Positions 9,991 through 61,470 of a stretch of DNA of 64,000 nt are shown here, one piece after another. The position numbers and the translations under genes are program-made. The notes below the pieces were generated by a model, which was not told the origin of the DNA, ran no database searches, and saw only the letters and a program-made list of their open reading frames with translations. This DNA comes from Mobula hypostoma (Eukaryota), in the NCBI RefSeq assembly GCF_963921235.1, contig NC_086108.1, positions 61,630,001 to 61,694,000 on the forward strand, written 5' to 3'. Position 1 is the first letter of the stretch, and the number at the start of each line of letters is the position of its first letter.

Positions 9991-11517
9991 CCTGTATCCC
10001 TGTGTCTATAATTCCCAGGATTAGCCCTATTATTTTCCTAAAACAAATGCATAAAAGTTGTCTCCCTCCAGTTTTCTGGTACTATTCCTGTGGCCATGAC
10101 AATGCAAAGATCATTGTCAAAGGCACAGCAATCTTTTCCCCATTTCTTGTGTTAACCAGGGGTATGTCCCATCTATCCCTGGGGACTTATCTATTCAACA
10201 GTTCTCAGAAGTTCCAGTACATCCTCTTTCTTAACAGGATGTCAGCCTACTCTGTGTTGTCCTCACATTTGTCATGATCCCTTTCACTAGTGAATATTGA
10301 AGTAAAATATTCATAAAGGACCACCCTACCCCCTCCATTTTCCTTAATTCCACTTGCCAAGGCATTCTCATGTCCCCCTGTAGCTGACCTAAATCCATTC
10401 TTAAGCTCCTTCCTCGCTACCTTGTAACTCGCCGGAGCCCTCTTGCTTCTGAAACCTTAAGTAAGCTTCTTGCTTCCTCTTGGCTGGACCTTCTACATCT
10501 CTCGTCAACCATGGTCCCTTCACCCTACCATCCTTTCCCTGCTACAATGGAACAAACCTATCTAGAACCCCATGAAGTACCCCCTAAACAACCTCAACGT
10601 TTCTCTTTGTGCATTTCCCTGAGTACGCCTGTTCCCAATTTACGCTCTCAAGTTCCTGCCTATTAGGGTTATAATTTGCCCTCCCCAATTACTTTACTTT
10701 TCCATTCCGTCTGCTCCTATCCCTCTCCAAGGCTATGGTACAGGTCAGGGAGTTGTGATTTGTGGTCACAAGTGTTAAGGCTTAAACCAAAGGTGTCAAC
10801 AAGTTGGAAAAGACCATAGTTTCTTGGTTAACTCTTTGCACATTACAACAATGAATTCTGCTTCTTCATTAATTTGAGACCATCAAAAATCCTCCCAAAA
10901 TACATTGGTATGACAGTTAACATTTAAAGAGATTTATATGTCATTAGTCATTCAGAAGGGTTAATATTAGTAATAAGAATACTTAAAAAGAACAAGATGG
11001 TCTTTCATGCTAATTGTTTTATGCGTATTTGAAATAAGATGTGATAATTAATTTCATACTTAAACTATTTATGTCACCAGTTTACATCAATGTAAAACAG
11101 AAAAAAATGAACATATAATTAATGAGACAGTTATTGTTGAATTCTGCCCTACTATAATGATATTATTCTTTGTCATTGGCACCCCACATATATAATTATT
11201 TGAAACGTGCAAAAGAAATCTCCGAAAGGAATATGTGTATGCACGTGGAAGGGGCTAATGGTCTCTGATCTCTCAGCAACACTAATTTCGAGCACGTTCT
11301 CCAGAACGTAATGCTTTACCTTCTGCCACCCACCTCCCCCCACCACCTGCAGCACAATTGGTGTGAGCTGCCATGGCACGGTTTTGTTTAGAGCAGACAC
11401 TCTGGTGCAACGTTGACAGAAAGCTACACTCTTGGAGAGGAGCTTTTCAAATGACATATTAAACATAGGTCTGGCCTCTCAAATAAAAACATAAAAGATT
11501 CCATAGCAATAATGAAG

Positions 11518-11621
11518 AAGAACAACACGCACAAAATGCTGGAGGAACTCAGCAGGTCAGGCAGCATTAATGCAAATACATAAACGGTCAACTTTTCAGG
11601 TCCAGACCTTCACTGGGACTC
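11518..11621 (-). mobile_element. Short PLE pLTR insert with degenerate hammerhead
   Basis: CACAAAATGCTGGAGGAACTCAGCAGG...GGACT; 9-bp TSD ATAATGAAG (11509-17, 11622-30). Confidence 0.82.
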
Positions 11622-11694
11622 ATAATGAAGGAGAACCTCTATTTTAACCAACTGCTGAGTTCCTATCCAATACTGCAAGACAGATTATCTGTAT

Positions 11695-14251: not shown

Positions 14252-14333
<82 letters not shown>
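14252..14333. repeat. Compound microsatellite (TG)n-(TA)n-(CA)n
   Basis: Directly visible. Confidence 0.97.
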
Positions 14334-14866
14334 TATAATGTATATGTGACAATGTTGATGGAAGTTCCAGATGAATGCTTGAGCATTTTTTTATTTAAAG
14401 TTTTCACTTAGCTATTGGCAGAATATTTGAAAGCTGCTCTGGTTTTGTTTCTGTTTGAAGCGGGTAATGTCTAAATTCCCAACAACAGTTGGATTCCACT
14501 GCCAGTTCTGCAGGGCAGCCAAACTATCAGAGATAATTGATTTATCTGATTAGCATGAATAATCATAGACAATTGTCTGGCCAGACATTGTTCTGACAAC
14601 TGTGTTATTCACTGCAGATTGGAATGGATGGATGGTGTTTTCTGTTAATTGTAGAAGCAAATTTTGGTTCCTTCACAATCCTTTATAATCATTCGAATTT
14701 TGCATAATTTGAATTTATTTTCGATCAGTTCTGGTAGCCCCAGTTTAGAAATATCATACTTTTTCTTTGGAGGAAGGTAATATATAGCTACAGGCTTGTT
14801 AGATCAACACACATAAAAGTTGCTGGTGAACGCAGCAGGCCAGGCAGCATCTCTAGGAAGAGGTGC

Positions 14867-14902
14867 AGTCGACGTTTCAGGCCGAGACCCTTCGTCAGGA
14901 CT
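14867..14902 (-). ncRNA. Minimal type I hammerhead ribozyme in PLE pLTR
   Basis: Minus strand AGUC-CUGACGA-AGGGUCUCGGCCU-GAAA-C-GUC-GACU: intact core, stem I AGUC/GACU, palindromic ACGU stem III. Confidence 0.8.
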
Positions 14903-15220
14903 AACTGAAGGAAGAGTGAGTAAGGGATTTGAAAGTTGGAGGGGGAGGGGGAGGGGGAGGGGGAGGGGGAGGGGGAGATCCAAAATGATAGGAGAAGACA
15001 GGAGGGGGAGGGATGGAGCCAAGAGCTGGACAGATGATAGGCAAAAGGGATACGAGAGGATCATGGGACAGGAGGTCTGGGAAGAAAGACAAGGGGGGGG
15101 GGAACCCAGAGGATGGGCAAGAGGTATAGTCAGAGGGACAGAGGGAGAAAAAGGAGAGTGAGAGAAAGAATGTGTGTATAAAAATAAGTAACAGATGGGG
15201 TACGAGGGGGAGGTGGGGCC

Positions 15221-15960
15221 TTAGTGGAAGTTAGAGAAGTCGATGTTCATGCCATCAGGTTGGAGGCTACCCAGACGGAATATAAGGTGTTGTTCCTCCA
15301 ACCTGAGTGTGGCTTCATCTTTACAGTAGAGGAGGCCGTGGATAGACATGTCAGAATGGGAATGGGATGTGGAATTAAAATGTGTGGCCACTGGGAGATC
15401 CTGCTTTCTCTGGTGGACAGAGCGTAGATGTTCAGCAAAGCGGTCTCCCAGTCTGCGTCGGGTCTCGCCAATATATAAAAGGCCACATCGGGAGCACCGG
15501 ACGCAGTATATCACCCCAGCTGACTCACAGGTGAAGTGTTGCCTCACCTGGAAGGACTGTTTGGGGCCCTGAATGGTGGTAAGGGAGGAAGTGTAAGGGC
15601 ATGTGTAGCACTTGTTCCGTTTACACGGGTAAGTGCCAGGAGGGAGATCAGTGGGGAGGGATGGGGGGGACAAATGGACAAGGGAGTTGCGTAGGGAGCG
15701 ATCCCTGTGGAATGCGGGGGGGGGGAGGGAAAGATGTGCTTAGTGGTGGGATCCCGTTGGAGGTGGCGGAAGTTACGGAGAATAATATGTTGGACCCGGA
15801 GGCTGGTGGGGTGGTAGGTGAGGACCAGGGGAACCCTATTCCAAGTGGGGTGGTGGGAGGATGGAGTGAGAGCAGATGTACGTGAAATGGGGGAGATGCG
15901 TTTAAGAGCAGAGTTGATAGTGGAGGAAGGGAAGCCCCTTTCTTTAAAAAAGGAAGACAT
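15221..15960 (-). pseudogene. PLE ORF C-terminus: linker, Cys motif and GIY-YIG endonuclease (one frameshift in the G/C run at ~15720)
   Basis: ORF 15544..15960 (RVPLVLTYHP) plus ORF 15221..15673 (C..NKCYTC, GVIYCVRCSRCGLLYIGET.RRLGDRFAEH, HFN, E..LI..L..LQPDGMN). Confidence 0.92.
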
Positions 15961-16699
15961 CTCACTCGTCCTAGAATGAAAAGCCTCATCCTGAGAGCAG
16001 GCTTGTTAGATGTCTGATTGCTGATTGGCAATCCAGATAGATACATTATCCATGATGATTAGCAGATAAAAGAGAATATGACCTAGAATCTGTACTGCAT
16101 TACACAACCTTTTTAATGCGGTACCTAATTCAATCTAAATCCTGATTGCTAAATGCAAATGGGTGCATGCTTCTACAAATTCACTTTTAGTGGTCTGTGC
16201 ATCTGGCAGTATACACACAGATGCCACTGGGCAATGTACAGTGATGTCAATTAATGCAAAATTAGGTGTGATTTCAATTTTAATATATACAATATTGACA
16301 AGAACAAGTCTCTAACACTAGACCAAATCTGAATCTGAGGTTTACCTATTCTAGCTTTAAGAAATTATTCATACTGAGGGCATTGTCAAAGATTCACTGA
16401 GGATTCATCTATCTTTCATGTGGCATATTGGAAAACAATGAAGGAAAGGTCTTTGTGTACAAGATGCATGCACAAGACCATGATTTTCTTATTTGAAGAA
16501 ATGCTAATCCTGCATATTTCCCCACAGTTCCCTTTCAACAGTTTCACCAGTTTGAGAATAACTTGCTTCATCTCTGTTTCTGTGGGTTCTGAGAAGACTG
16601 ATGAAGCCAATGTGTGATCTGCAGAATTTGGCAAGGTGGGGCAGAAGGTGCTTAGCAGAGCAGTTCTGTGAGTCATTTCAGATAATGCGTTCTTTACAC

Positions 16700-19923: not shown

Positions 19924-20022
19924 GCAACACACACAAAACGCTGGAGGAACTCAGCAGGTCAGGCAGCATCTATGGAAATGAATGAACAGTTGACACTTCA
20001 GGCTGAAACCCTTCTTCAGGAT
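19924..20022 (-). mobile_element. Short PLE pLTR insert ending at the hammerhead core
   Basis: GCAACACACACAAAACGCTGGAGGAACTCAGC...CCCTTCTTCAGGA; minus strand CUGAAGA..GAAG (degenerate). Confidence 0.8.
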
Positions 20023-22270: not shown

Positions 22271-24699
22271 CCTGACCTACAAGCAACAGGCACTTAGCTC
22301 ATGAAGTCAGCCTGAGGGCCGAGCAAATCAGTGAGCAGCAATTAAAGATAGAATGAAAATGAAAAACAGTACTGCTGCTGGAAAACAAAACACTCAGCAC
22401 ATCAGACAGCTTCCGTGAAAAGAGAAACAGAGTTAACGTTTCAGTTGAGAGACCCTTTGTCAGAATGTGTGGAGCACCTATAAATTAGAAGCTATGCAGC
22501 CTCATTATACCATTATTCGACCAATGTTTTTCCAAAACAAAAAAAAATATCTTTGATTCCTGTTCCAAAAATTTAGATTAACTCCTTATAAAACCATATC
22601 TAATTCTTGGGAAATAAGAATCAATTCCTCCTGAAGAATAAACATTAAACATGTATCTTTCATTTTCCCTAGTTTTTCTGTTCTGTATTACTGAGAATGT
22701 TGATCCTTGTCTAGGCATGGTTGCACTAGCTCTACAGTGTTGCAATGAATGTTAGCTAGCCCAGTGACCAGAAGCAGGTTACAGGTAACAGGTAATAGGT
22801 AATCCTACCTATAACATTCTAATGAAAGGCAAACCCTTCACTTTTCATAGTATTTTCTACAATTGTGATTTTATTTCAACAATCCAGACTACATCTGGCG
22901 TCCAACAAAAAAAGATACTAGATGTTTATGCAGGCGGGTACATGGTTATAAATCTGAAGAAAAGCATCTCAATAACCTCTCACTGTAATATGAAGAACTT
23001 CAAGGTGTACAGTGCTATAATACGTGGAACAGCAATTAGGCTGCCCTCGGTGAAATCACCGCGGAACAGAAATCTAAACCATTCTGTGGAATGGATTCAC
23101 TCAATTTATTTAAAAAAACAATAATTGGATAACCATATGGGGATTTCAGTTAAGGGTGAAGAAGAATGGCAAACTGAAGTGTTCTTGGAAAAGTACAAGT
23201 AAAACATCTAAGGGCGAACGATACAGAGACATATCAGGGAATAAATATTGGCATTGCAGTGGTCCAAGTCCTATGAACAAAGAAAACAAACACCATGGCA
23301 GCTGGCATAAGTCTCATTAGCCACTTGCATGATTGGCCATACATCTCTTGGTCTGTGATTATATTGTTGATCAGGTGTTTTTTTTTAATTGACTAAGAAA
23401 GTAAGCCAAAATTGCCAAAATTGTTCTCTGCACTTGATAGAGCACATTCCAGAGAAATTAAAATGTCTTTAAGCTAGCACATATTAATATATTTTCAATG
23501 AATGTTACGCAGGCATGACAGACTATTAATTATATGGGTTCCTGAAATAAATAATATAAAAGCATTCTTGCAGAAATCTACCCAGGACAACCTTGTTTTT
23601 GCATTTCTTGTACCAATAAAACCATTCTTAAATTTGTTTTGTTAGTTAATTATAAGCAAACACCAGGATTTAATAGTGTAATATGGGAAACTAAAACAAT
23701 TTGATTTAGTCAGCCAACCTATGATCACAAGAATCTTATCACTTGGTTTGATGGAAGGTGTGAAATAAATTGTCCTCTGCGTATGGTAAATCCTGCTGTC
23801 TTTCTTACTAAGTAAAATCTCCAAGAGTTCATGTACATTAACTGTTCTTTAATGGTTGCCTTTGCATCAAATTATATTTACACTACTAAATTTCAATGCA
23901 CTATACAGTCCATAAATGCAAAAATTGTGCTCTGCAAAGTAGAAAGCAATGAGGACTGGTGAACTAATTAATAATAAATACCATAATGATAAATACAGTA
24001 ATGTGCAAAATTAGATAGTATAGTCTATTCCAATTAACACTAGTTCATGAAAAAAGACATTAAGAAATGATGCAATGCTTTTAGCACTCAATTTAAAATC
24101 CATCATACAAAAAATAATTTTTATTCTCTATCATGAACTATCATATTATTAAACACCACACAAGTAATTTTGTATAAGAAAAATGAACTACATGAAGAAC
24201 AGTTCTGATATCCTTGCGCAGAATATTTTAGGAAGATGACCACATACTTGGAGGATGTTTTGAAACAGATAATGTTTAAAATTGCAGAAACCTAGCCCTT
24301 TCTCTTTGATAGAAACCTCACTTTTGCATCCAATCCTATCCCTTTTCAGAAGGGGTTTGATCTGGCTCTTGAGTTTTACCATATTGTTCTCCTCTAGAAC
24401 TACTAAGCAAAAAAGAAACTTTGCCTAACATTTTTTCTGCTGGACCTCATTTTGTGTTCCTTTTGATTTCAGCATTTGAACATCTTTGTCATAACGAATA
24501 AACATCAATCAACATTTTCCCTCAAGTTTGAAAACTTCACTTAAGTCACCTTAAATTGTTTTCACATTTCTGAAGAATACAATACTTTCCTGATTATTTC
24601 CCCATAAATAGACTTGATAGTTTAGTTCCTCCATGCCTTCCTATGGTAGCAATTGGTCAGGCTGTGCAGCTCATTGCTAAGAAATGAATATTATGAGAA

Positions 24700-25759: not shown

Positions 25760-25974
25760 AAGCAACACACATAAAAGTTGCTGGTGAATGCAGCAGGCCA
25801 GGCAGCGTCAATAGGAAGAGGTACAGTAAATGTTTCGGGCCAAGTCCTGACGAAGGGTCCCGGCCCGAAACGTCAACTGTACCTCTTCCTATAGATGCTG
25901 CCTGGCCTGCTGCGTTCACCAGCAACTTTTATGTGCATTGCTTGAAATTCCAGCATCTGCAGATTTCCTCGTGT
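25760..25974. mobile_element. Fold-back PLE pLTR with hammerhead at its centre
   Basis: Inverted arms 25760-25841 and 25862-25943; + strand AGUC-CUGACGA-AGGGUCCCGGCCC-GAAA-CGUC-AACU at 25843-25878. Confidence 0.9.
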
Positions 25975-43439: not shown

Positions 43440-43635
43440 CACACAAAATATTCTGCAGATGCTGGGGTCAAAACAACACTCACAACATGCCGGAGGAACT
43501 CAGCAGGTCGGGCAGCATCCGTGGAAACAATCAGTCAACGTTTCGGGCCGGAACCCTTCATCAGGACTGAAGAGGGAAGGGGCAGAGGCCCTATAAAGAA
43601 GGCGGAGGGAGGGTGGGAAAGAGAAGGCTGGACAG
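43440..43635 (-). mobile_element. PLE pLTR fragment
   Basis: Reverse complement of the 56498-56624 insert, plus extra purine-rich sequence. Confidence 0.88.
43531..43570 (-). ncRNA. Minimal hammerhead ribozyme (best-formed copy)
   Basis: UCAGUC-CUGAUGA-A-GGGU-UCCG-GCCC-GAAA-C-GUU-GACUGA: perfect 6-bp stem I, and stem II capped by a UCCG loop. Confidence 0.8.
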
Positions 43636-55619: not shown

Positions 55620-58471
55620 AGCTGAGCTTAGAGCGTGGATCAGTATTTGGAGCTATGATGTTGTGGCCATTACAGAGACTTGGTTGGTGCAGGGGCAGGA
55701 ATAGTTACTTCAAGTGCCAGGCTTCAGATGTTTCAGAAAGGACAGGGAGGGAGGCAAAAGAGGTGGGGGCATGGCACTGTCGATCAGATATAGTGTCACA
55801 GCTGCAGAAAAGGAGGAAGTCATGGAGGGGTTCTCTACAGAGTTTCTGTGGGTGGAAGTTAAGGATAGGAAGGGGTCAATTACTCCACTAGATGTTTTTA
55901 AAGACCACCCAATAGTAACAGGGACATCGAGGAGCAGATAGGGAGACAGATTCTGCAAAGGTGCAATAATAATAGGGTTGTTGTGTGGGAGATTTTAATT
56001 TCCCTAATATTGGTTGGCATCTCCCTAAAGTGAGGGGTTTAGATGGGGTGGAGTTTGTTAGGTGTGTTCAGGAAGGTTTCTTGACACAGTATGTAAGTAA
56101 GCCTACAAGAAGAGGGGCTGTACGTGATCTGGTATTGGGAAATGAACCTGGTCAAGTGTCAGGTCTCTCAGTAGGAGAGCATTTTGGAGATAGTGATCAC
56201 AATTCTACCTCCTTTACCATAGCATTGGAGAGGGATAGGAACAGACAAGTTAGGGAAATGTTTAATTGGAGTAAGAGGAAATATAAGGCTATCAGGCAGG
56301 AACTAGGAAGCATAAACTGGAAACAGATGTTCTCAGGGAAACGTATAGAAGAAATGTGGCAAATGTTCAGGGGACAAGAGGAGCTTATGAAAGGTTCAAA
56401 AAACTAGGTAATGGTAGAGATCCAGAAGATTATAAGGCTAGCAGGAAGGAGCTTAAGAACGAAATTAGGAGAGCCAGAAGGGGGCCGTGAGAAGGCCCCT
56501 GATGAAGGGTTCCGGCCCGAAACGTCGACTCATCGTTCCCACAGATGCTGCTCGACCTGCTCAGTTCCTCCAGCGTGTTGTGAGTGTTGCTTTGACCCCA
56601 GCATGCAGATTATTTTGTGTTTACGAGAAGGCCTTGGTGGACAGGATTAAGGAAAACCCCAAGGCATTGTACAAATATGTGAAGAGCAAGAGGATAAGAC
56701 ATGAGAGAATAGGACCAATCAAGTGTGACTGTGGAAAAGAGTGTATGGAACCGGAAGAGATAGCAGAGGTACTTAATGAATACTTTGCTTTGGTATTCAC
56801 TACAGAAAAGGATCTTGGTGATTGTAGGGATGACTTACAGCGGACTGAAAAGCTTGAGCATGTAGATATTAAAGAAGATGATCTGCTGGAGCTTTTGGAA
56901 AGCATCAAGTTAGATAAGTCACCAGGACCAGACTGGATGTACCCCAGGCAACTGTGGGAAGTGAGGGAGGAGATTGCTGAGCCTCTGGCAATGATCTTTG
57001 CATCATCAATGAGGACAGGAGAGATTCCAGAGGATTGGAGGGTTGTGGATGTTGCTCCCTTATTCAAGAAAGGGAGTATAGATAGCCCAGCAAATTATAG
57101 ACCAGTGAGTCTTACTTTACTGGTTGGTAAGTTGATGGAGAAGATCCTGAGAGGCAGGATTTATGAACATTTAGAGGGCCATGATATAATTAGGAATAGT
57201 CAGCATGGCTTTGTCAATGGCATGTTGTGCCTTACGAGCCTAATTGAATTTTTTGAGGATGTGACTAAACACATTGATGAAGGTAGAGCCATAGATGTAG
57301 TGTATATAGATTTCAGCAAGGCATTTGATAAGGTACCCCATGCAAGGCTTATTGAGAAAGTAAGGAGGCATGGGATCCAAGGGGACATTGCTTTGTGGAT
57401 CCAGAACTGGCTAACCCACAGAAGGCAAAGAGTGGTTGTAGACGGGTCATATTCTGCATGGAGGCCAGTGACCAATGGTGTGCCTCAGGGATCTGTTCTG
57501 GGACCCCTACGATTTGTGATTTTTATAAATGAGCTGGATGAGGAAGTGGAGGGGTGGGTTAGTAAATTTACTGATGACACAAAGGTTGGGATGTTGTGGA
57601 TAGTGTGGAGGGCTGTCAGAGGTTACAGAGGGTCATTGATAGGATGCAAAACTGGGCTGAGAAGTAGCAGATGGAGTTCAACCCAGATAAGTGTGGCGAT
57701 GTTCATTTTGGTAGGTCAAATATGATGGCAGAATATAGTATTAATGGCAAGACTGTTGGCAGTATGGAAGATCAGAGGGATCTTGCTGTCCAAGTCCATA
57801 GGACACTCCAAGCTGCTACGCAGATTGACTCTGTGGTTAAGGAGGCATACAGTGCATTGGCCTTCATCAACCATGGGATTGAGCTTAAGAGCTGAGAGAT
57901 AATGTTGCAGCTACATAGGACCCTGATCAGACCCCACTTGGAGTACTATGCTCAGTTCTGCTCACCTCAATACAGGAAGGACGTGGAAACCATAGAAAGG
58001 GTGCAGAGGAGATTTACAAGGATGTTGCCTGCATTGGGGAGCATGCCTTATGAAAATAGATTAAGTGAACTCGGCCTTTTCTCCTTGGAGCCACAGAGGA
58101 TGAGGGGTGACCTGATAGAGGTGTACAAGATAATGAGAGGCATTGATCATGTGGATAGTCAGAGGCCTTTTCCCAGGGCTGAAATGGCTAGCATAAGAGG
58201 ACATAGTTTTAAGGTACTTGGAAGGAGGTACAGAGGAGATGTCAGGGGTAAGTTCTTTTACACAGAGAGTGGTGAGTGCGTGGAATGGGCTGCCGGCGGT
58301 AGTGGTGGAGGCGGAAACGATAGGGTCTTTTAAGAGACTCCTGGATAGGTACATGGAGCTTAGAAAAATAGAGGGCTATGGGTAACCCTAGGTAGTTCTA
58401 AAGTAAGGACATGTTCAGCACAGCTTTGTGGGCTGAAAGGCCTGTATTGTGCTGTAGGTTTTCTATGTTTC
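55620..58471 (+). mobile_element. Near-complete CR1 ORF2 (APE endonuclease + RT) and 3' end; disrupted
   Basis: DVVAITETW, GDFNFP, DLVL and SDHN endonuclease motifs; RT ORF 56487..57725 ([34 protein letters not shown]); stops, frameshifts and a deletion at ~56372; (TTCTATGT) tail. Confidence 0.96.
56498..56624 (+). mobile_element. 127-bp hammerhead-bearing PLE mini-insert
   Basis: Starts C-CUGAUGA-AGGGUUCCGGCCC-GAAA-CGUC-GACU; perfect 9-bp TSD GAGAAGGCC (56489-97, 56625-33). Confidence 0.92.
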
Positions 58472-61332: not shown

Positions 61333-61470
61333 AGTCCTAAAGAAGGGTCTCAGCTCAAAATGCGACTTTCTATTTATTTTCATAGATGCTGCCTGACCTG
61401 CTGAGGTCCCCCAGTAGGTTGTGTGTGTTGTTCAAGATCTCCTGCATCTGCAGAATCTTTTGTGTTTACG
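61333..61470 (+). mobile_element. PLE pLTR fragment starting at a decayed hammerhead
   Basis: AGTCCTAAAGAAGGGTCTCAGCTCAAAA..ATAGATGCTGCCTGACCTGCTGAG. Confidence 0.8.

Follow-up and report, generated by a model that had tools for sequence, protein, structure and literature searches.

Results

A PLE stub within a broken LINE

The insert studied here is a short PLE copy that interrupts a LINE, inside a window of 64,000 nucleotides from Mobula hypostoma (the whole stretch of DNA that was analysed). Breakpoint positions are counted from C3 of the hammerhead as 0, which is 56499 in this insert. The features at the locus are the following.

55705..58385, + strand: host LINE, presumably CR1/L2-type, with APE-type endonuclease and RT, frameshift-broken (RVT_1, E 1.7e-24; Exo_endo_phos_2, E 0.0044, below the cut-off)
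56489..56497, + strand: 5' copy of the 9-bp TSD (sequence; empty site)
56498..56624, + strand: PLE stub of subfamily A, 127 bp, beginning at -1 of the hammerhead core and extending to the downstream RT start site at reference +127
56499..56530, + strand: minimal type I hammerhead remnant (sequence; minimal-hammerhead features as in PMC4209133)
56499-56505, + strand: hammerhead core
56507-56518, + strand: hammerhead helix II
after 56526, + strand: predicted hammerhead cut site
56527-56530, + strand: 3' strand of hammerhead helix I
56584..56624, + strand: approximate "tail" between two RT start regions, reference +85..+100 and +120..+132 (bimodal 3' ends; PMC11167929)
56625..56633, + strand: 3' copy of the 9-bp TSD (sequence; empty site)

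The first-pass annotation of this DNA described a 127-bp insert with a perfect 9-bp TSD, starting one base before the hammerhead core, and both statements are borne out. The flanking direct repeat is exact, although two of its nine bases could equally derive from the 3' continuation of the element, and 14 other copies of the host LINE cross the insertion point with neither insert nor duplication. The start at 56498 immediately precedes C3. The 56498 copy is without the 5' strand of helix I (-4..-2), and its hammerhead fold has a z of +0.86 compared to -2.19 for the intact copy at 43530-43571; by this modelling it is unable to form helix I or the hammerhead fold, unlike the intact copy. An Rfam scan of the window up to E 1 detected no hammerhead, in keeping with the minimal nature of the motif, and alternating dinucleotide microsatellites at 14252-14346 produced spurious microRNA-family matches below gathering scores. 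The RT frame of the host LINE is open across the stub (56469-57725, + strand, 418 codons from stop to stop), which is likely a coincidence because the stub's own frame is open there.

Several further PLE copies were found in the window.

11518..11621, - strand: PLE stub with a 9-bp TSD (11509-11517 / 11622-11630), one extra G, then start at -4 (by eye)
14805..16005, - strand: longer, 5'-truncated subfamily B copy with GIY-YIG coding part, pyrimidine-rich 3' UTR and hammerhead (BLAST, translation, Pfam)
19924..20022, - strand: PLE stub, start at -4/-2, without clean TSD (BLAST with the query; by eye)
22390..22465, - strand: older, diverged PLE-like stub, start near -1/-2, no TSD seen (by eye)
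25763..25974, no single strand: two-arm inverted PLE insertion of subfamily B, forward arm starting at -4 (25843) (BLAST)
43441..43630, - strand: subfamily A copy with intact hammerhead, reaching upstream of -4 (BLAST, fold)
61333..61470, + strand: PLE stub, start at -4, without clear TSD (BLAST with the query; by eye)

The earlier claim that other short copies share this 5' boundary stands as far as position is concerned, since all four start within four bases of the core, but a clean TSD is present only in 11518-11621, so that together with the 56498 insert two of the five listed window copies have one. In 11518-11621 the extra G is absent from the target and the hammerhead core is decayed. 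The 22390-22465 stub belongs to an older, diverged subfamily, and BLAST with the query gave no match there. The longer copy at 14805..16005 continues through the -4 point.

The parent element

The genome searched comprises 3.48 Gb in 200 contigs and holds 5,183 exact matches to a marker 25-mer of subfamily A and 14,151 to a marker 27-mer of the sister subfamily B. Long copies encode an RT, a cysteine linker and a GIY-YIG domain, with Pfam scores at or just under the cut-offs (GIY-YIG, E 1.1e-4 and 1.8e-4, 22.9 and 22.1 bits against a cut-off of 22.6; RVT_1 on a long-copy fragment, E 4.7e-5, below cut-off), and RT and GIY-YIG share one frame in the internal reference. By eye, a CX2-5CxxC linker is present between RT and endonuclease. 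Such a linker is described as a Neptune feature in PMC8557442, and the element is an EN+ PLE that, judged by its linker, probably belongs to the Neptune clade. In long copies the ORF is followed by about 300 pyrimidine-rich bases, the hammerhead and about 128 further bases. Beyond +128 some copies continue with the ORF start, so that the hammerhead region is a pLTR with a minimal type I hammerhead and the ORF start downstream; the frame is open through the hammerhead. The 3' ends are bimodal (about +85..+100 and +120..+132), 78 of the 192 arms sampled below adjoin an inverted piece, and the TSD mode is 13-15 bp.

A pLTR, a one-sided tail of 30-40 bp, an inverted copy and a TSD are the layout of EN+ PLEs (PMC8557442, PMC3846280). 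Neptune-type elements, as far as described in the available texts, have the same RT with C-terminal GIY-YIG, cysteine linker and pLTR with minimal hammerhead, and also the same 5' truncation, adjacent inverted copy, one-sided tail of this length and TSD (PMC8557442, PMC3846280, PMC4209133). The PLE origin proposed for the insert is thus supported by the marker oligonucleotides, the long copies with RT and GIY-YIG and the pLTR layout. The minimal hammerhead expected in the pLTR is seen, and it folds in the copy at 43530-43571.

Some copies deserve separate mention. In most two-arm insertions (L020-L240) the arms differ in their start, +120..+132 for one and +85..+100 for its partner, as if each target strand used its own RT start site. 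One apparent full-length subfamily A element of about 3.8 kb runs from -160 to +93 (L392; G000:C71:13661500-13667986, minus strand), and a chimera (L351) is subfamily B upstream and subfamily A downstream, with the switch inside the hammerhead region.

5' ends accumulate at the foot of helix I

To describe the 5' breakpoints we used the first 90 listed subfamily A matches and 102 subfamily B arms (n = 192), all on contig C1 and all anchored downstream of the hammerhead, which makes the sample blind to the 5' end. For A and B together the stop rate per base is 0.0027 at +55..+32, 0.0068 at +31..+20 and 0.0047 at +19..+12, then 0.0197 at +11..0 and 0.0425 at -1..-6, and again 0.0046 at -7..-20, 0.0039 at -21..-50 and 0.0024 at -51..-100, with an upstream minimum of 0.0011. 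The stretch from -6 to +11 of the core holds the stops of 61 of the 192 arms, where 9.6 are expected (Poisson P ~1e-28, with bins set post hoc and arms that are not fully independent, some B arms being pairs from one insertion), and truncation is indeed non-random at the ribozyme, as first proposed. The peak is present in each subfamily (A, 31/90; B, 30/102). Its highest single positions are -4 (9 arms) and -1 (8 arms), while -2 has 3, and it ends in a cliff at -4/-5: over a few bases the stop rate drops about nine-fold there, and helix I begins with the base at -4. The peak spans 18 bases, and of the arms in this unbiased sample only 9 have their end exactly at -4, three of them with a G. Smaller excesses of stops occur at +20 and at +9..+11.

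The peak is also present among simple arms (those joined to target DNA): 17 of 96 stop at -1..-6, a rate of 0.032 per base against 0.0013-0.0024 on either side. A TSD accompanies 45 of the 61 peak arms, although the shortest (7-9 bp) may include chance matches, and 34 of the 61 lie within two-arm inverted insertions. Half of all arms (96/192) continue in alignment into the pyrimidine tract. Only 5/192 stop at the predicted cut site (+27..+29), which rules out the self-cleavage site as the stub boundary and agrees with the earlier observation that the boundary lies upstream of the core and off the GUC cut site. Simple stubs make up 9/90 of A and 17/102 of B, corresponding to about 500 and 2,400 among exact-match copies if C1 is typical.

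Other end positions were seen in small numbers. A few subfamily B arms (L157/L158, L202, L090, L056, L213) stop at -8/-9, where another initiator-like motif, a possible second start site, lies upstream of helix I. About seven subfamily A copies end at -158..-162 (L091, L376, L377, L375, L138, L015, L008), possibly a minor upstream start or a microhomology hotspot; a second sharp end near -158 was rejected, as the number of copies is small and two have one common junction. Five ORF-start-bearing copies stop at +70..+77 (L123, L128, L134, L145, L147), a cluster that is absent from the unbiased sample.

An extra G precedes junctions at -4 in subfamily A

A genome-wide pattern for junctions exactly at -4, which excludes C by design, found 177 places. 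Among the 100 of these that were listed, the base before -4 is, by eye, G in 51, A in 21 and T in 28, with 17 of the T cases being long copies. Before -1 (88 places, by eye, T excluded) it is G in 20, A in 31 and C in 37, and the G:A ratios of 51:21 and 20:31 differ with p 0.0008. We fetched 90 of the 177 loci, dropped 18 as long or subfamily B copies and retained 72 true subfamily A junctions. In these, with C again excluded, the preceding base is G in 44, A in 20 and T in 8. The G is found at simple joints (21/31) and at inverted joints (23/41), and it itself follows T in 27/44. At inverted joints whose filler comes from neither arm, this filler ends in G in 19/28, compared to 10/33 of the non-C fillers elsewhere (Fisher p 0.005). 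Thirteen simple G junctions bear a TSD; here the G is extra in six and inside the target duplication in seven, as if the added bases had annealed to the target. The 2.5-kb ORF-bearing copy L391 has, by eye, a 14-bp TSD and one extra G, followed by -5, and the 56498 window copy shows no extra G.

The G accompanies every main sequence variant and either 3' start site, which rules out a single G-bearing master copy, and none of 40 long subfamily A copies has G at -5. Fold-back onto helix I was rejected as its source, since it predicts C for 35 of the 44 G cases. Subfamily B junctions have a G:A ratio of 24:26 by eye (p 0.43; simple joints 6 G of 12), in a list that is mixed with other subfamilies and contains many inverted joints. 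In a comparison with L140:990-2100, single contigs of another organism, of presumed RNA origin, carry the same two extra bases ahead of -4. An extra G at the 5' junction of full-length L1 insertions is described as a mark of cap copying in PMC11702581. By analogy, the extra G before -4 in subfamily A suggests that a capped RNA end has been copied.

Stubs share the variants of long copies

Short and long copies are not separated by diagnostic sites: among 20 tests in A (31 short and 40 long copies) the best p is 0.045, and among 10 in B (30 and 50) it is 0.09. Divergence is 4.8 vs 5.1% in A and 3.2 vs 3.0% in B, and stub ends vary at both the 5' and the 3' side. A separate, SINE-like stub lineage was therefore rejected, as there are neither diagnostic substitutions of its own nor fixed ends. 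A tandem of two complete hammerheads occurs in 0/192 arms (three direct neighbours and one jump were seen, none qualifying).

Non-LTR (animal) retrozymes share with the stubs a type I hammerhead, PLE pLTR ancestry and the lack of coding capacity, but according to PMC7761336 and 10.64898/2026.07.22.740005 they are tandem units of 150-300 bp with at least two complete hammerheads and with circular RNAs. The Mobula stubs are single, often incomplete and variably ended, and form no lineage. The stubs are hence not retrozymes: they are not tandem, have no lineage of their own, end variably, and the 56498 copy is without helix I, unlike copies starting at -4, which would retain the 5' strand of helix I. 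The first-pass description of retrozyme-like mini-retroelements is not upheld by these data. Furthermore, PMC11167929 reports that the Anolis PLE protein needs the first 172 bases of ORF RNA and not hammerhead cleavage; by this analogy the stubs, which are without ORF-start RNA, are likely dead on arrival.

Direct dimers with periods of about 301, 320 and 250 bp exist at L136 (G000:C2:22393892 region), L413 (C12:162167289 region) and L121/L016 (C81:11157403 region). They contain the UTR end, the whole hammerhead, the RT start sites and the ORF start, and an unusual junction occurs twice (of five bases only in L121). The dimers suggest that RT circled a small circular RNA, or re-read an RNA, more than once, and it is these 250-320 bp dimers, not the 100-130 bp stubs, that are the retrozyme-like candidates. 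When 40 of 202 candidates were scored, the L136 junction turned up at its own locus only. In two of 430 hammerhead-bearing arms (L266, L232) the 3' end coincides exactly with the predicted cut base, +27, and L266 spans -4 to +27, the expected 5' cleavage fragment; these two give a faint hint of in vivo cleavage.

Discussion

A proposed run-off to a capped start

We propose, with reasonable though not high confidence, that the 5' ends of PLE stubs pile up at helix I because RT starts about 90 or 127 bases downstream and runs off a capped RNA start at -4/-5. The stubs are then likely to have been copied from the first part of the element's own mRNA. We take the -4/-5 site to fit an Inr-like initiator consensus, and Pol II would start there at a pyrimidine-flanked A and the transcript would be capped. 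A capped start at this position is suggested by the extra G at -4, the cap mark known from L1 and the initiator-like site in combination. RT would initiate internally, near the mRNA 5' end, in line with the internal initiation that requires ORF-start RNA (PMC11167929), and would run off the cap, adding C opposite it and then often A. End-joining would trim 0-15 bases, of which the 56498 copy would have lost three, and priming of both target strands would give the inverted two-arm form. In this mechanism the hammerhead would mark the spot as the 5'-terminal structure of the mRNA, and its cleavage would be unneeded.

Long copies call for additional sources of sequence. Only 3/16 ORF-start copies stop at -4..-12, and most ORF-bearing copies extend past -4. 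Seven independent longer-ORF copies reach the hammerhead and end at -5 (one), +14 (one) and between -158 and -466 (five); four near-identical loci at -381 are set aside here, and the -5 copy is one of the 3/16 loci. Since many ORF-bearing copies extend upstream, many templates or jumps would supply upstream sequence; its possible sources are the downstream pLTR/ORF junction in tandem transcripts, a template jump and circular RNA.

A more tentative extension is that the run-off is an LTR-like first step, with a strong-stop cDNA from -4 to +127 as an R region at both RNA ends. RT primed on target DNA would copy from the internal start to the cap, jump to the 3' copy and continue. About 40% of the events that reach the hammerhead would fail to jump and leave stubs, and repeated jumps would build the partial-tandem pLTR. 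Retroviral minus-strand strong-stop DNA is likewise a short cDNA that begins internally, close to the 5' end of its RNA. The stub run-off differs from it in being only 90-135 bases long, in being itself integrated by target priming and in using no tRNA primer, and we know of no RNase H domain in PLEs.

Other explanations of the boundary

A defined RNA 5' end at helix I could also exist without a cap, by 5'-to-3' decay halted at a protein-bound hammerhead or by processing at the splice-acceptor-like -2 site, with RT running off and adding an untemplated C. We consider this unlikely, although several observations fit it. The cliff lies at the foot of helix I, upstream sequence is present in most ORF-bearing copies, subfamily B is without a clear G excess, and C added by terminal transferase to an uncapped end would look similar to cap copying. 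Moreover, D. virilis Penelope is described as having its start inside the pLTR and near the hammerhead, as we infer for the Mobula PLE, yet 46 bases upstream of an intron of 75 bp that reaches to the 5' end of helix I (PMC2377424, PMC4209133), whereas the inferred Mobula start lies directly at helix I and spliced copies were not seen. Against an uncapped or spliced end, the single G agrees with the cap copying reported for L1 insertions (PMC11702581). The bases -4 and -3, upstream of the would-be splice junction, are kept in many copies, with more of them ending at -4 than at -2, and the sequences preceding the stubs show no upstream exon in common; a splice-acceptor boundary at -2 was rejected on these grounds.

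It is quite improbable that the boundary reflects structure and no RNA end at all, with RT stalling at the hammerhead, or cDNA folding back or annealing via the inverted repeats of helices I and II, followed by trimming. Some inverted joints do use stem microhomology (e.g. L157), self-priming at inverted junctions has been proposed (PMC3846280), and the small excesses at +20 and +9..+11 would fit. However, the sharpest peak comes from the simple arms joined to target DNA, fold-back predicts C and not G, and the peak lies on the far (5') side of the helices, which half of the arms read through. The earlier suggestion that reverse transcription ends at the ribozyme helix is weakened by the same points: a stall would be expected at the 3' face of the helix, and the G points to a physical RNA 5' end.

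The proposal of a non-autonomous, retrozyme- or SINE-like family, its own small RNA mobilised in trans by the PLE protein, is largely refuted, and we give it very little weight. That there are thousands of copies, with a TSD at most peak arms, would suit such a family; so would a proposed derivation of retrozymes from PLE pLTRs (10.64898/2026.07.22.740005), the likely start site retained by a copy that begins at -4, and the rare direct dimers of 250-320 bp. Yet no site is diagnostic of short versus long copies, their divergence is equal, both ends vary and tandems are absent from the arms sampled. The boundary is off the cut site, the 56498 copy would be unable to form helix I, and the stubs are without the ORF-start RNA needed by the Anolis protein (PMC11167929). 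A separate small RNA is further disfavoured by the placement of more than half of the peak arms in inverted insertions. Finally, PLEs are heavily 5'-truncated (PMC8557442) and three of five window copies are without a clean TSD, but the idea that the boundary is an alignability artefact of the pyrimidine tract, which the first-pass annotation had raised, or ordinary random truncation is hardly credible and is refuted for the sampled part of C1, as copies lie only about 3-5% from the reference, 96 arms align through the tract, TSDs fix the junctions and the stop rate drops so steeply.

Relation to known systems and meaning

The PLE family, the stubs and the two-arm form are already known. The available texts on EN+ PLEs describe truncation but neither a helix I peak nor a cap mark, and our literature search, with supplements, subscription journals and Repbase notes outside its scope, found no report of either for PLEs. 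The closest experimental parallel is the Anolis Poseidon PAc in vitro, for which the available part of PMC11167929 reports a pair of internal RT start sites, likewise downstream of the hammerhead, with both target strands extended, no need for hammerhead cleavage and no RNA reads ending at the cut site. It belongs to a different clade, its ORF starts at stem II whereas that of the Mobula PLE likely starts further downstream, and that part gives neither a mapped start site nor an analysis of genomic 5' breakpoints. For full-length LINE-1, PMC11702581 describes an extra G where RT meets the capped 5' end, as at the stubs.

How PLEs replicate, and what role the conserved minimal hammerhead plays, are stated as open questions in PMC11167929, PMC7761336 and PMC8557442. 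The 90-135 bp stubs offer a testable clue to this replication. They yield a base-resolution prediction from DNA alone, namely a capped start at the first base of helix I and RT start sites 90-130 bases further downstream, which would make a short run-off cDNA a major product. The run-off to a capped start would account for a large part of the single hammerheads dispersed in such genomes, with no new small-RNA element required. If the LTR-like step is true as well, the stubs would preserve in the genome a replication intermediate that has yet to be mapped, and the capped mRNA would have the hammerhead as its 5'-terminal structure.
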